DNA from: a virus
Taxonomy: Duplodnaviria; Caudoviricetes
Reading direction: 5' to 3' (one strand)
Virus record (IMG/VR): IMGVR_UViG_3300013105_000022
Location: 1-64,000 of that record
DNA: 64,000 bases
In this document: positions 3,120 through 54,543 of the stretch, piece after piece
How positions within the stretch are numbered: the stretch's first letter is position 1
Layout of the letters: each line of letters opens with the position of its first letter
The notes under the pieces: model-generated
The model's database searches: none
Told to the model about the DNA's origin: nothing
The model's input: the letters and a program-made list of their open reading frames with translations, nothing else
Program-made: the position numbers and the translations under genes

Positions 3120-4336
3120 GTGAGCTAGGCGAAGACATCCAGAAGGCCAAGGAGAAGGCGCAAGCCGCTATCAAGGCCGATGAGTACTTCATGAAGGATT
3201 CCGAAGGTAACTTCAAGGAAGCCACCCTCATGGCTACAACAGCCTGGGGAGAGGATGATTGGAAGGCCTGGCTTCTTGAGCAGGGTACCAATCCGGAAGA
3301 TGTCACCTTCACCTTTGGAGTAACTTCCAATCCGTCCGGTGGTTACTGGAACAAGCTCCTCAATGTCAAGTACAAGAACAAGAATTTGGACGACGAAGGC
3401 GTGCCTCTGTGGCCTGTCATCCAGCCTTCCACGACCGTCTATAAGCTACGTCCCGTAGTCAAGACTCCGAAGGTCTCCAAGTTCAAGACAGCCGTGATCG
3501 GTGCAGACACTCAGATCGGCTTCGACATGGACGACCAGGGCAACCTGTACCCGTACCATGACGACCAGGCTATGGATGTCTTCCTCCAGGTCGTACAGCT
3601 TGAGGACCCAGACCAGACGATTCTTGCCGGTGACATCCTAGACCTTGCAGAGCAGGGCCGATGGGCACAGGAAGCTCGATTCGCGAACACCACACAGCAT
3701 GCCCTAGAGCGTGGCCGTAGGTTCGCCGCTGAGACCCGAGCCGCTACCAGTGGAGAGATTCACTGGATCGAGGGTAACCACGACAAGCGAATGCAGGGCT
3801 TCATGGAAGCCAACGCGAAGAGCGCTATGGGACTTCGTAAGGCCGGATACCCAGACTCGTGGCCTGTGATGAGTCTCCCGAATCTGATTGGTCTCGATGA
3901 CTTCGATACCACCTACATCGACGCATACCCAGCCGGACAGCACTGGATCACCGACAACCTCCGTGTGATTCATGGCACCAAGAGCCGTAGCAACGGTTCT
4001 ACGGCCTCAGCGTATGCCAACACGACTCCACACCTGTCTACCATCTTTGGACACTCTCACAGGCTTGAGATTCAGTCCAAGACGATCTTCGACAGGGCAG
4101 GCAAGATCAGGACGATGAACGTCAACCCTGGATGCCTGTGTCGTATCGACGGTGCAGTACCTTCCGTGCACGGTGCACGACACCTGGACGGCTCTAAGGC
4201 CACGTTCTACGAGGACTGGCAACAGGGCGTGGCAGTGATCCGCTACCGCGACACCGGCGAGTTCTACGTGGAACTCATCCAGATCGACAACGGCAAAGGC
4301 TTCTACGGTGGCCAAGAGCTAGAGTCACGTGTCTGA
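3116..4336 (+). CDS. Calcineurin-like metallophosphoesterase
   Basis: DTQ, GDILD, GNHD, IHG, GHSH motifs in order. Confidence 0.85.
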   Translation: MSELGEDIQKAKEKAQAAIKADEYFMKDSEGNFKEATLMATTAWGEDDWKAWLLEQGTNPEDVTFTFGVTSNPSGGYWNKLLNVKYKNKNLDDEGVPLWPVIQPSTTVYKLRPVVKTPKVSKFKTAVIGADTQIGFDMDDQGNLYPYHDDQAMDVFLQVVQLEDPDQTILAGDILDLAEQGRWAQEARFANTTQHALERGRRFAAETRAATSGEIHWIEGNHDKRMQGFMEANAKSAMGLRKAGYPDSWPVMSLPNLIGLDDFDTTYIDAYPAGQHWITDNLRVIHGTKSRSNGSTASAYANTTPHLSTIFGHSHRLEIQSKTIFDRAGKIRTMNVNPGCLCRIDGAVPSVHGARHLDGSKATFYEDWQQGVAVIRYRDTGEFYVELIQIDNGKGFYGGQELESRV

Positions 4337-4971
4337 TGAGTGTGATTTCCGTAGAGAGGGCCTTGTGCCCAAAATGCGGCACACTTCAGCCTAGAGACGA
4401 GTGGCCTACCTATCCTGACGGAAAATATAGAAGAACATGTAGAGAGTGCAAGCGCGCCAAGGATAGAGAATACGCGGCTAGAACTGCCGAGAAGAGACGC
4501 AAAGTATCAAGCGCTTGGATCAAGGCACACCCAGAGGTAAACAGGTCTAGGGTGAAAGCGTGGCAAAAGAAAAATCCGGAAAAGGCCAGAGAGACCAGAA
4601 GAGCTTGGTACAAGAATAACCCAGAGAAAGTTCACGCCAGCAATCGCGCCTCCTATCTGAGAAATAAGGACGTACACTTCGCAAAAGCGGCTAGATACAG
4701 AGCCAGGAAGCGGGAGGCCGAGTGCGGTTGCGTAGATAAAAGCTTTCGTCAGACTCTGATTAGAGCATATGGAGCTTCTTGTTTCTACTGCGGGGGTTCT
4801 TATGAGCACACCGACCACTTCGTACCTCTTGCTGGCGGAGGAATGAACTGTATTTCAAATCTAGTTCCATCCTGTGCTAACTGCAACCTGTCCAAGAAGG
4901 CGAAGCAAGTAGAGGACTGGACCGGATGGAACGGCAAGAGTCCGACGCTTGAGTGCCCCAGTAAGCGATAG
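4336..4971 (+). CDS. HNH homing endonuclease
   Basis: CFYCG..DHFVPLAGGG.N...NLVPSCANCNLSK; N-terminal Zn ribbon and basic helices. Confidence 0.9.
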   Translation: MSVISVERALCPKCGTLQPRDEWPTYPDGKYRRTCRECKRAKDREYAARTAEKRRKVSSAWIKAHPEVNRSRVKAWQKKNPEKARETRRAWYKNNPEKVHASNRASYLRNKDVHFAKAARYRARKREAECGCVDKSFRQTLIRAYGASCFYCGGSYEHTDHFVPLAGGGMNCISNLVPSCANCNLSKKAKQVEDWTGWNGKSPTLECPSKR

Positions 4972-6300: not shown

Positions 6301-6384
6301 GAAACCCACGAGAAATTCCAGTTCGACTCTGGTATAGTCCACCACATGGGCTATCCTGCCGGTGCCAGGACTTGTGGGCGTTTT
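6301..6384 (+). ncRNA. Circularly permuted tRNA-like RNA (YrlA-like topology)
   Basis: CCCACGAG/CTTGTGGG stem enclosing, in order, T arm, loop-closed acceptor, D arm. Confidence 0.7.
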
Positions 6385-7271: not shown

Positions 7272-7376
7272 CTCAACGCCGTAGGTTCGATTCCTGAAAT
7301 AGCTCGCTGGTGCGTGTGCGGCGCTGTACCAATGATTTACGCCGAGGGTTGCATTCAAACTAACTCCAGGCCCAAC

Positions 7377-15572: not shown

Positions 15573-15644
15573 CGGTAGGGGAGGCCTCCCCTGCAAGAGG
15601 CGAGTGGGGTTCGATTCCTCCTGGTTGGAACATTCGCTTCGCAT

Positions 15645-15784: not shown

Positions 15785-15857
15785 GGGGTCTTAGCTCAGT
15801 TGGTAGAGCATCTGTCTGGCAGACAGAAGGTCAGGGGTTCGAATCCCCTATTCTCCA
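15785..15857 (+). tRNA. tRNA-Ala(GGC)
   Basis: TCTGT-CTGGCAG-ACAGA; G3:U70; two acceptor mismatches. Confidence 0.85.
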
Positions 15858-15911
15858 CAGCCGAGAGTAGCTAGCTCTCACAATAGTCTCTGTTGCTGAG
15901 ACGGGCACTAT

Positions 15912-15984
15912 GGGCCTGTAGCTCAATTGGTAGAGCACCTGCTTTGCACACAGGAGGTCGCGCGTTCGATTCGCGTCAGGTCCA
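15912..15984 (+). tRNA. tRNA-Ala(TGC)
   Basis: CCTGC-TTTGCAC-ACAGG; G3:U70. Confidence 0.9.
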
Positions 15985-16053
15985 CGGAAAGGGTCCGGTT
16001 CGTCCGTGATAAAAAAGAAAGACCATGTGTTACGCATGGCACCTTATCCCCAC

Positions 16054-16125
16054 GGGGGCACATGTACCAAGGTGGCGAGTCTCTTTTGCAAGGAGACTGG
16101 GTGGGTTCGATTCCCACTGTTTCCA
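16054..16125 (+). tRNA. tRNA-Ala(TGC), divergent D arm
   Basis: TCTCT-TTTGCAA-GGAGA; GTGGG-TTCGATT-CCCAC. Confidence 0.8.
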
Positions 16126-16170: not shown

Positions 16171-16230
16171 GGGCTGTATGAGACTGGAGAGTTTCGGTGC
16201 ACGAGGCGGGTTCGATTCCCGCACAGTCCA
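16171..16230 (+). ncRNA. 60-nt mini tRNA-Ala / tmRNA TLD-like RNA
   Basis: GGGCTGT/ACAGTCC-A with G3:U70, unpaired D region, short stem, perfect T arm. Confidence 0.65.
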
Positions 16231-16365
16231 CAAATAGCACCCAAGAACTTTCCTGAGGGTGCGAAGGGAGATACGGAAGTGACTCTCCTACCAACAAGAA
16301 CGGATTCCACTGTGGACAGCTTGACAAAAGAAGAATTCCACACCCTCGCACGAACGGGTGAGCTT

Positions 16366-16696
16366 ATGCTTACTACCGAAAGAGACGAGGAGCAGATCGC
16401 CACTCACCTTATCAAGGATCACGGCTGGATCAACGTGGACATTCACTACGAGAAGGACACAGAGGCGGGTTGGCTGAGGCTCTGGATCGACTGAGAGCAC
16501 GATAGTAGTACATAGACACCTTAGGAGTGTAGCTATGGACTACGAATACAATGACACCACTCTTCTAGAGACTCTGAAGAGTACCGACGTTCCTCGCATC
16601 CTCACGGATCGCGTAGATGGGACAGTCGTCTATGTTGCGTTGTCTGACGATGGGGAATCCCTAGTCGAGGTAGACATCGAGGAACTAGATGACTGA
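16366..16696 (+). CDS. Two small acidic hypothetical genes (16366-16494, 16535-16696)
   Basis: Open frames; the second has an AGGAG SD and overlaps the endolysin start. Confidence 0.55.
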
Positions 16697-27997: not shown

Positions 27998-28924
27998 ATG
28001 CTTAGTCACATCGCCATCAGGAACTATCAGAGCCTTGGGGACATCTCCCTAGACCTCAAGCCCTTTACGGTGATTGTTGGGCCGTCGAGCAGTGGCAAGA
28101 GCGCGTTCACCCGAGCACTGAAGACACTCACGAGTAACCAACGTGGAGACTCATTCGTGACTCACGGTGAGACGCAGACAGTCATCAAGGCAACCACTGA
28201 TCGCGGTACCGTTGCTCTGCTTCGAGGTAAGAAGAATGAGTATGTGCTGATCCCTGAAGGGGACACCACACAACAGCAGTCATTCACGAAGTTGAACGCC
28301 ACGGTACCCGAGGAGGTCACGGCATTCTTGGGCATCCCTGCCGGTGATGCACTCAACTACGCTGACCAGTTCGACATGCCCTACATGCTCAAGCGCAGTG
28401 GCGGAGATGTGGCGCGCGAGCTTGGAGCACTCACTAACGTGTCTGTCATCTTCGAGGCATCGAGGGAGGCGAACAGGCGAGCGCGTGGAGCATCAGCAAC
28501 ACTGAAGACACGTGCCAGTGACTACGCAGGCCTGACCGTAAATCTTGATCGCTACAAGAGCTTGAAGGACGACCAGCAGGCCTTGACATCAGCGCAGGAG
28601 CAGTTGAAGCAGGCCAAGGAGTTGGCAACAAGAATTCAGCGCCTTGACATGCTGATCGCCAAGCTGACCAGCGCCCCCGAGGTACCCGAGGCAAGAACCC
28701 TCCCAAGCACCGAGGATGTGGAGACCATCAGTGCACAGGTACAGCAGTTGTCGAGTCTCATCAGGAAGGCACAGCAGGCACAGGGCACCATCGAGAACAG
28801 CATCGATGACAGCGCTAAGGCATACCTGATTCGCGAGCAGGCAGAGGAAGAGTACGCGGAAGCACTGAGGGATGCCGGTACCTGCCCAACGTGCAGACAG
28901 AGCACCCATGACATCCATTCATGA
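27998..28924 (+). CDS. SbcC/Rad50-like ATPase, N-terminal half
   Basis: IRNYQSL, GPSSSGKS Walker A, Q-loop (DQFD), coiled coil, terminal CPTC zinc hook. Confidence 0.8.
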   Translation: MLSHIAIRNYQSLGDISLDLKPFTVIVGPSSSGKSAFTRALKTLTSNQRGDSFVTHGETQTVIKATTDRGTVALLRGKKNEYVLIPEGDTTQQQSFTKLNATVPEEVTAFLGIPAGDALNYADQFDMPYMLKRSGGDVARELGALTNVSVIFEASREANRRARGASATLKTRASDYAGLTVNLDRYKSLKDDQQALTSAQEQLKQAKELATRIQRLDMLIAKLTSAPEVPEARTLPSTEDVETISAQVQQLSSLIRKAQQAQGTIENSIDDSAKAYLIREQAEEEYAEALRDAGTCPTCRQSTHDIHS

Positions 28925-54174: not shown

Positions 54175-54543
54175 ATGAGCAAGGAACTTCTATTCAGCGT
54201 CACTTTGGACGACTGCAAGGTAGAGACATTCCGCGCTGGAGGTCCCGGAGGACAGAACCAGAACAAGCGCGAGACCGGCGTGAGGATCACTCACAAGGAG
54301 TCTGGCGCTGTCGGTGAGTCCCGAGAAGAGCGTTCACAGCTTCAGAACAAGAAGACGGCCTTCAAGCGCATGGTCGAGTCTCCCCATTTCAAGTACTGGC
54401 TCGCCTTGAAGCGACGTGAGCTTGAAACCGGAAAGACTGCCGAAGAACGTGTAGAAGAATCTATGAAGGATTCGAACATTCGTACGGAAATTCATGATGA
54501 GCAGGGACGATGGGTTGCGGCTTCGGGAGAGGATTTGGTATAG
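54175..54543 (+). CDS. Class I release-factor catalytic-domain protein (ArfB-like peptidyl-tRNA hydrolase)
   Basis: RAGGPGGQNQNKRETGVRITH..ERSQLQNK..A. Confidence 0.88.
   Translation: MSKELLFSVTLDDCKVETFRAGGPGGQNQNKRETGVRITHKESGAVGESREERSQLQNKKTAFKRMVESPHFKYWLALKRRELETGKTAEERVEESMKDSNIRTEIHDEQGRWVAASGEDLV

Follow-up and report, generated by a model that had tools for sequence, protein, structure and literature searches.

A mini gene probably derived from tRNA-Ala in a phage tRNA array and the recurrent class of phage alanine-type minis to which it belongs

Introduction

The closest described counterpart of the element considered here comes from a mycobacteriophage: Hudson, Lau and Williams (Hudson et al. 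2014) list "Mycobacterium phage DS6A (TLD only)", where TLD is the tRNA-like domain (PMC4131195). According to these authors, who cite Mao et al. 2009, a molecule similar to the DS6A TLD-only form strongly inhibits transfer-messenger RNA (tmRNA), perhaps by titrating SmpB. The 2025 tmRNA database article likewise cites Mao et al. 2009 for inhibition of endogenous tmRNA in E. coli by the DS6A form, and the article includes plastid tmRNA forms of approximately 65 bp that are devoid of a coding sequence (CDS) (PMC11915505). We located the DS6A RNA at 28478-28557 of JN698994.1, where it is 80 nucleotides (nt) long and scores 43.2 bits on the tmRNA model. A second described tRNA mimic is the tRNA-like module of YrlA, which is bound by Ro60 (Chen et al. 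2014, PMC4201824). Against this background we analyzed a 60-base gene, hereafter the mini, at positions 16171-16230 on the plus strand of a stretch of 64,000 nt (the window), which forms the first 64 kb of the 136.5-kb IMG/VR record IMGVR_UViG_3300013105_000022, a large soil phage whose record is 100% complete by CheckV. The mini stands at the end of the alanine group of the tRNA array of this phage.

The mini is a real, non-random gene, most likely derived from tRNA-Ala, and it belongs to a recurrent and essentially undescribed class of phage RNAs; our full-text literature searches retrieved no description of shorter, tRNA-Ala-derived minis in phage tRNA arrays. That such an RNA is maintained as a functional member of its class is probable in our judgment, whereas a role in ribosome rescue is advanced more tentatively, by analogy with the DS6A precedent.

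Architecture and fold of the mini

The sequence of the mini is GGGCTGT AT GAGACTGGAGAGTTTC GGTGCACGAG GCGGG TTCGATT CCCGC ACAGTCC A. The 5' strand of its acceptor stem (GGGCUGU, 16171-16177) pairs at 7/7 positions with the 3' strand (ACAGUCC, 16223-16229), with G3 of the G3:U70 pair at 16173 and U70 at 16227. The discriminator A73 is the final base (16230), and CCA is not encoded, the trailer being CAA. The T arm (GCGGG-UUCGAUU-CCCGC, 16206-16222) combines a 5-bp stem with a canonical 7-nt T loop and abuts the acceptor helix with zero gap, while a connector of 28 nt joins the two helices on the other side. The connector begins with a two-nucleotide joint, AU (16178-16179), which occupies tRNA positions 8-9 and is unpaired in the minimum free energy (MFE) fold, and continues with a 6-bp D-like hairpin, GAGACU-GGAG-AGUUUC (16180-16195), with a GG-containing tetraloop; a UGG in this hairpin (16185-16187) corresponds to U17-G18-G19. 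The anticodon arm is replaced, as judged from fold energies and alignment, by a 10-nt single-stranded linker, GGUGCACGAG (16196-16205), within which GUGCAC (16197-16202) is probably a remnant of the anticodon loop of tRNA-Ala(UGC).

The MFE of the mini is -24.5 kcal/mol (z = -2.3 against shuffled sequences), and the MFE and centroid folds agree on the order acceptor, AU, D-like hairpin, 10-nt single strand, and T arm; the acceptor/T-arm unit still forms when the mini is folded in a 164-nt context. A preliminary description made from the sequence had correctly placed the acceptor strands, the G3:U70 pair, the terminal A, the T arm, the CTGG at 16184-16187, and the TTCG (16193-16196) and CGAG (16202-16205) that flank GTGCA. 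Its view of the region between the helices fares less well. The D region that it had called stemless places CTGG within the 6-bp hairpin of the preferred fold. As for the short stem that it had drawn from TTCG and CGAG around a GTGCA loop, the letters are present, but the resulting hairpin, UUCG-GUGCA-CGAG, yields a fold of -21.2 as against -24.5 kcal/mol, a penalty of 3.3 kcal/mol, and has an ensemble frequency of 0.001 versus 0.27 for the preferred fold.

The genomic setting is that of a tRNA gene. ARAGORN finds 44 tRNA genes and zero tmRNA genes in the phage genome; the array is sorted by amino acid, is interspersed with HNH endonuclease genes, and wraps across the ends of the record. The alanine group upstream of the mini (15785-16125, plus strand, by ARAGORN and Rfam) consists of tRNA-Ala(GGC) at 15785-15857, tRNA-Ala(UGC) at 15912-15984, and a non-canonical tRNA-Ala(UGC) at 16056-16125. 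The mini starts 45 nt past the last of these on the same strand and is thus, as the preliminary description had it, the last of the group, the fourth of four alanine-type genes. Neither a promoter-like nor a terminator-like site was found on the plus strand between the alanine group and the mini. The flanks of the mini match those of the phage tRNAs, with T at position -1 (25 of the 36 tRNA genes in the window), C after the discriminator (35/36), and the CAA trailer (6/36); the presence of C, but not CCA, after the discriminator, together with the frequent T at -1, makes for a strikingly uniform processing context across the array. When stray T-arm-like sites outside the ARAGORN tRNAs were collected over the 136.5-kb genome, a 7/7 acceptor abutting the T arm was found only at the mini and at a tRNA-Tyr-like gene (1617-1690). 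A complete acceptor in this register is thus all but unique among stray T arms, which argues that the mini did not arise by chance.

Probable derivation from tRNA-Ala(UGC)

In a global alignment, the mini is identical to its neighbor tRNA-Ala(UGC) at 15912-15984 in 49 of 60 positions, with small deletions in the D stem, both strands of the anticodon stem, and the variable loop. Both genes have the identity elements, the same T loop, and the processing flanks, and the mini retains UGG-AGAG from the D region and UGCAC from the anticodon loop. In contrast to the complete tRNA, the mini is 13 nt shorter and is without a D stem in canonical register, an anticodon stem with a 7-nt loop, and a variable loop. 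Acceptor pairs 5-7 and two T-stem pairs also differ from tRNA-Ala(UGC), with pairing retained in all of them, and acceptor pairs 5-7 are unlike those of every paralog yet still paired. The simplest and most likely origin, as far as can be read from these alignments, would be a tRNA-Ala(UGC) gene in which the decoding half has collapsed and the top half has been kept.

The same alignment is also what would be expected of a decaying, functionless duplicate of tRNA-Ala(UGC) that lost parts of its D and anticodon arms in an array reshuffled by homing endonucleases. This pseudogene is the strong rival to a functional RNA, even if on balance we regard it as somewhat unlikely. The mini aligns as a copy with small deletions that still holds UGCAC from the anticodon loop, no detector calls it a tRNA, several HNH genes are present in the array, and the element is lineage specific, being absent from all close relatives. 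Moreover, T-arm fragments lacking acceptor stems, best regarded as tRNA debris, occur at 6317, 7281, 15605, and 135977. However, only the decoding half has suffered losses, with all 12 of 12 stem pairs of the top half intact along with the T loop, the G3:U70 pair, A73, and the flanks for processing; the divergent acceptor pairs 5-7 have kept their pairing; and the architecture recurs in unrelated phages, where it is conserved in unalignable contexts (see below).

Relationship to tmRNA

Standard detectors recognize the mini as neither tRNA nor tmRNA. ARAGORN leaves it uncalled in both bacterial and metazoan-mitochondrial modes and yields only a mis-registered call at an 80% threshold, and Rfam RF00005 has zero match to it at E <= 10, also when a 101-nt segment is searched. 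The mini does not form the cloverleaf of a canonical tRNA, in which a D arm is joined by an anticodon arm with a 7-nt loop. It does have the acceptor of a tmRNA (7 bp, G3:U70, A73), while at only 60 nt it holds no mRNA-like domain, tag frame, or pseudoknots. On the Rfam tmRNA model RF00023 it scores 14.5 bits, or 23.0 bits in a genome-wide run, against a cut-off of 47; by comparison, an ordinary tRNA-Gly of the same phage scores 23.5 bits and the IMG/VR element L270 scores 39.7 bits (here and below, labels beginning with L or G are our handles for records and contigs). Of the mini, the model aligns nothing but the acceptor and T arm plus two GA dinucleotides, and it deletes the D region.

The preliminary description had read the mini as a stand-alone TLD of tmRNA type. 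The alanine marks, the lack of a usable anticodon arm, and the tRNA-gene context uphold part of this reading, but a specific kinship to tmRNA is not supported: the scores fall within the range of ordinary tRNAs of the phage, and the tmRNA signature is missing. A set of 29 tmRNAs from Micrococcales, the order of the likely hosts, shares a 5' part GGGGNNG-AYM-GG-UUUCGAC and a 3' part GGAC-GCGGG-UUCGAUU-CCCGC, whereas the mini has GG-AGAG-UUUCGG in place of the D-loop/P2a signature and CGAG before its T arm. The T arm itself is identical to those of the phage tRNA-Gly(GCC) and tRNA-Thr(CGU) and to those of most Micrococcales tmRNAs, and, being common to tRNAs and tmRNAs, does not discriminate between the two origins.

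A true tmRNA derivative, that is, a CDS-less TLD-only tmRNA homologous to that of DS6A, might be argued for from the fact that tmRNA is the top-scoring Rfam family for the mini within the tRNA clan and from the combination of G3:U70, A73, the commonest Micrococcales T arm, and a GG followed by UUUCG that recalls GG-UUUCGAC. The fold first proposed for the mini, with a D loop, a short hairpin, and a T arm, is also the layout of clear TLD-only minis such as L434 and L527. Nevertheless, the bit scores stay far below the cut-off and below those of DS6A and L270, the model deletes the D region, four nucleotides are inserted between GG and UUUCG, there is neither the GAC that should follow nor the GGAC that should precede the T arm, and tRNA-Ala(UGC) shows the higher identity over the whole length, anticodon-loop remnant included. 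Homology to the DS6A form is accordingly quite improbable. The two RNAs are alike in being phage encoded, in their 7-bp acceptor with G3:U70 and A73, in the T arm, and in having neither an anticodon arm nor a message. Unlike the 60-nt mini, the DS6A RNA contains GGUGGUCGAC, the D-loop motif of tmRNA, and a long helix of P2-like type; the mini instead has a D-like hairpin and linker and appears to derive from tRNA-Ala(UGC).

A recurrent class of alanine-type minis in phages

A scan of IMG/VR with the pattern GGGC, 23-43 nt, GGTTCGAWTCC, 6 nt, GTCCA returned at least 118 stretches, and among the matches listed 63 of 124 have perfect acceptor and T stems. In the listed distinct matches of up to 61 nt, the number of free stem pairs is bimodal, with 17 sequences at 6/6 and 17 at 3/6. 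Once two false ones inside tRNA-Tyr genes are removed, at least 15 distinct minis of 49-60 nt with G3:U70, A73, and perfect stems remain. A control sample of equal size with G3:C70 gave 3 minis as against the 15 with G3:U70, which is suggestive of a bias toward alanine as far as raw counts without denominators can be. We define the class operationally by a 7/5 acceptor/T-arm stack with G3:U70 and A73, a length of 49-61 nt, a 17-28-nt connector in which UGG falls at positions 13-18, and the lack of a 7-nt anticodon loop. The mini of the window, with 60 nt, 7/7 and 5/5 pairs, a 28-nt connector, and U15-G16-G17, falls within it, and its connector is directly comparable to those of L234, L254, L196, L237, and L290.

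At least 6 of the 15 listed minis (L196, L244, L290, L209, L234, and L283) are embedded in tRNA arrays and have the orientation of the tRNAs. The fold of three members, L234 (59 nt), L254 (60 nt), and L290 (56 nt), is exactly that of the mini of the window: 1-3 nt after the acceptor comes a hairpin of 4-5 bp capped by a GG tetraloop, and a linker of 10-12 nt leads on to the T arm. L290 has the very same acceptor stem, GGGCUGU/ACAGUCC, and L234, on a contig of 135.8 kb with a few genes in common with the studied phage, shares at the same offset the 8-mer CUGGAGAG of the D-like hairpin. A covariance model built from the mini alone (R1) detected, at E <= 0.01 in 174 kb, 16 minis (21-40 bits) and zero canonical tRNAs. 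The reverse model (R2) gives the mini 74 bits, a circular score, since the R2 alignment was fitted to R1; an alignment of the minis by MAFFT mis-registers their 5' ends.

Two pairs of minis bear on whether such RNAs are maintained. L195 and L212 (49 nt) are identical in 41 of 49 positions and differ by two double compensatory changes, and L196 and L237 (54-55 nt) have identical stems and a similar D region; in both pairs the flanks, taken as 400 nt on each side, cannot be aligned. Conservation amid unalignable flanks argues that these RNAs are maintained at the level of the class. The class is heterogeneous: some members (L270 and a second element in L209) contain the D-loop motif of tmRNA and reach 40-41 bits against the tmRNA model, others have a canonical D arm (L206, L304, and L190, of which L206 and L190 score 44-48 bits on the tRNA model), and the mini and its look-alikes are intermediate between the two. 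In sum, the IMG/VR minis resemble that of the window in the G3:U70/A73 acceptor stacked on a 5-bp T arm and in the UGG-bearing connector of 17-28 nt, but their connector sequences vary, none is a clear ortholog, and any functions they have are likewise putative.

Two further candidates, L034 and L044, were discarded as analogs because an extra base separates their T arm from the acceptor. A palindromic linker that might mediate dimerization was likewise given up: self-complementary 6-8-mers occur in 11 of 16 minis against 4.06 expected in the first sample, but an independent sample (GGGG...CTCCA) had 2 of 7 against 2.06 expected, and the GUGCAC of the mini is better read as the anticodon-loop remnant. 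In the tRNA array of L209 (IMGVR_UViG_3300033405_000001, 463 kb; 4030-4350 and 4494-4569), a jumbo phage, we also observed a 59-nt alanine mini alongside a bacterial-type RNase P RNA (208 bits) and a 76-nt TLD-only-like element that scores 41.3 bits on the tmRNA model.

A possible role in ribosome rescue and its alternatives

With its anticodon arm collapsed to a 10-nt linker, the mini cannot decode. The acceptor/T-arm half is the part of a tRNA on which RNase P, 3' processing, the CCA-adding enzyme, alanyl-tRNA synthetase (AlaRS), and EF-Tu act, so the RNA should mature and be alanylated. The mini would be co-transcribed with the tRNA array, RNase P would cleave after the T at -1, the 3' end would be trimmed, and a host enzyme would add CCA to give a product of 63 nt. 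AlaRS would then be expected to charge it with alanine, because an acceptor helix with G3:U70 is all that this enzyme needs. The putative target would be the machinery that handles the only other anticodon-less alanylated tRNA mimic of the cell, the TLD of tmRNA: by competing for SmpB and EF-Tu, the mini might damp or re-route trans-translation during infection. We therefore put forward the mini as a candidate for a non-decoding, alanine-chargeable top half of tRNA-Ala possibly acting on ribosome rescue, a composite statement that we hold tentatively and at less than even confidence. The assignment to ribosome rescue taken separately is more doubtful, deriving as it does from the DS6A precedent and analogy. 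Titration of SmpB, already raised in the preliminary description, has in DS6A a published precedent for a message-less tmRNA-like inhibitor, but the tmRNA signature of that type is missing from the mini.

A number of findings speak against such a role or against maintenance of the locus, in addition to the low tmRNA-model score, the absent signature, and the tRNA debris noted above. No ortholog of the mini is found at the locus in its close relatives, namely, the Microbacterium phages Pumpernickel and Big4, a 171-kb IMG/VR contig (L009/G001), and Logan contig L047, and R1 finds nothing above 20 bits in the whole records of Pumpernickel, Big4, G001, and L047. A hunt for orthologs by way of the endolysin, the metallophosphatase, and exact and motif DNA patterns also found none; its single metagenome match, L576, was rejected for an imperfect acceptor. 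The distantly related contig G002 offers no more than an analog. A look-up of identical endolysins led to four further samples that contain this phage at 99.95-100% identity, with the mini unchanged; these copies, being of the same phage, are uninformative, and the locus itself thus presents neither covariation nor orthologs with compensatory change. Perfect stems were a condition of entry into the sample that defines the class. Of 16 phage records with a mini, three also have a full tmRNA gene, an odd combination for a pure inhibitor. A gene for an ArfB-like protein with an RF-1 domain is present in just 2 of 20 mini-bearing records, revealing no association, and a metallophosphoesterase gene is present in 9 of 19 mini records, within about 1 kb of the mini in one of them and 12 kb off in the window.

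The position of the mini allows for a different reading, in which the minihelix would be a processing or punctuation element whose cleavage by RNase P or RNase Z frees the 5' end of a downstream mRNA (open reading frame [ORF] 16279-16494, a 53-aa ORF, and the endolysin). The mini is the last tRNA-like unit ahead of a protein-coding block, no promoter-like site was found between the array and the downstream ORFs, and the preserved parts are exactly those that RNase P and RNase Z recognize. But the complete tRNA-Ala 45 nt upstream could serve equally, G3:U70 and A73 need not be retained for processing, and minis of the class are found elsewhere between tRNAs (L244, L290, and L209) or at a distance from tRNAs and arrays altogether (L195, L212, and L254). 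We see only a slim chance that the mini is such an element.

The same low expectation attaches to a decoy for defense nucleases or toxins that recognize the acceptor/elbow half, or to a sink for AlaRS, either of which would protect or modulate the tRNA-Ala pool. Phage tRNA arrays are thought to counter tRNA-targeting defenses, and this array does hold duplicated isoacceptors and non-canonical variants such as the tRNA-Ala at 16056-16125 and the Tyr-like gene at 1617-1690; most known defenses of this kind, however, cut the anticodon loop, which the mini lacks, and no candidate partner gene was found. Finally, the mini might donate alanine to a non-ribosomal aminoacyl-tRNA-dependent transferase, for example in cell-wall or lipid modification, as the preliminary description had also envisaged. 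Some Fem-type transferases accept alanylated minihelices, and the endolysin lies about 460 nt downstream. Yet no FemAB-family gene is present in the phage, we noticed no other candidate for a transferase in the neighborhood, and ordinary tRNA-Ala genes in the relatives are found close to the lysin as well, leaving this the least probable of the readings that we considered.

In many bacteria, ribosome rescue is an important or even essential pathway, and it serves as a target for drugs. If the minis were charged and acted on SmpB/EF-Tu or on stalled ribosomes, they would represent a compact RNA tool by which phages switch off or re-route this process; DS6A, the single published case, would be the tip of a widespread class, and tRNA-Ala and tmRNA would be convergent routes to the same minimal alanine-accepting mimic. 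As a broader proposal, which we regard as a long shot, alanine-chargeable, anticodon-less top halves may have arisen repeatedly from tRNA-Ala and tmRNA in many phage lineages and may enter stalled ribosomes with SmpB/EF-Tu, where they would block tagging or effect tag-free rescue and so spare phage proteins made from damaged or truncated mRNAs from being marked for degradation. In the studied phage, this might take place alongside an ArfB-like hydrolase of its own (54193-54510), the two replacing host trans-translation. Since the minis are missed by tRNA and tmRNA finders alike, the class is invisible to annotation, and what looks like a gap in a phage tRNA array can be the site of a real tRNA-like gene that does not decode. 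The case for this particular locus is built on architecture and analogy rather than conservation, and its value is therefore that of a further member and a testable example.

Relatives, syntenic modules, and other features of the array

The protein relatives of the phage are actinophages: its metallophosphatase is 46-55% identical to counterparts in Microbacterium and Clavibacter phages, and its endolysin shows 54% identity to that of Pumpernickel and 60-63% to those of two Logan contigs. Judged by its protein relatives, the phage likely infects a host from the Microbacteriaceae. Genes for SmpB, FemAB, and a CCA-adding enzyme were not found in the phage genome. The RF-1-domain ORF (54193-54510; a 127-aa open frame) scores 72 bits against PF00472 and looks like an ArfB-type peptidyl-tRNA hydrolase; a homolog of 50% identity is seated inside the tRNA array of contig G002 (15107-15484).

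In all four close relatives the locus runs Ile, Ala, Ala, RNAs, an ORF of 53-55 aa, and the endolysin. At the syntenic place of the mini they have one to five permuted tRNA-like modules with a GNCGAAG motif and sub-threshold YrlA matches of 30-36 bits, and a Ro60 (TROVE) gene is found just downstream of the endolysin in Pumpernickel and L047. No TROVE gene is present in the genome of the studied phage, and RF02553 (YrlA) has zero match at the mini locus. YrlA-type Y RNAs are thus similar to the mini in being tRNA mimics of phage tRNA regions that, in relatives, occupy its syntenic place, but they differ from it in their permuted layout, with the T arm first and the acceptor closed by a loop, in the GNCGAA(N)G motif, and in the accompanying Ro60, whereas the mini is unpermuted and has free 5' and 3' acceptor ends. 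A 12-13-nt identity between the 3' part of the mini, CCCGCACAGTCC, and the starts of lysin genes of the relatives was dismissed as chance-level (E about 0.4).

T-loop-first tRNA-like modules are seen in the studied phage as well, at 15600-15637, 7277-7323, and 6301-6384 of the window and at 135974-136031 of G000. That following tRNA-Ile is homologous to a YrlA-like module of Big4 (L046, about 2770-2830), and the module in G000 has a YrlA match of 28.8 bits despite the lack of a Ro60/TROVE gene in the phage. GOLLD RNA (Rfam RF02032; 213.9 bits against a cut-off of 150) is encoded inside the tRNA array at 636-1077 of the window; embedded in it is a tRNA-like unit with a partial RF00005 match (713-775) and an anticodon-loop-like CUCUAAC, for which there is no ARAGORN call and no matching acceptor stem was found. 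The tRNA-Tyr-like gene at 1617-1690 has a 7/7 acceptor (GGGAGTA/TGCTCCC) and an anticodon loop CTGTAAA; its D region is odd, a long variable arm is lacking, and the gene is missed by ARAGORN and by Rfam at the gathering threshold.

Variant tRNA genes are also seen next to the mini and in other phages. The third tRNA-Ala(UGC) (16056-16125) is non-canonical, with 33 bits and an aberrant D region, ATGTACCAAGGTGGCGA, yet it is conserved: L009 (1384-1457) has the same odd D sequence and shows compensatory changes in the anticodon stem. Big4 (L046, 2857-2924) and many IMG/VR phages encode tRNA-Ala(UGC) genes of 66-69 nt with a 4-bp D hairpin and a GG tetraloop. The related Logan contig L048 (8560-8640) contains, ahead of two tRNA-Ala genes, a tRNA-Ile-like unit with a CTGATAA loop and an extra segment of 22 nt before the T arm, which ARAGORN leaves uncalled. 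The annotated 68-nt "tRNA-Ser(cga)" of Big4 (ON637770.1, 100198-100265) overlaps a permuted YrlA-like module that scores 31.7 bits (L046, 3767-3874) and is probably a mis-annotation.

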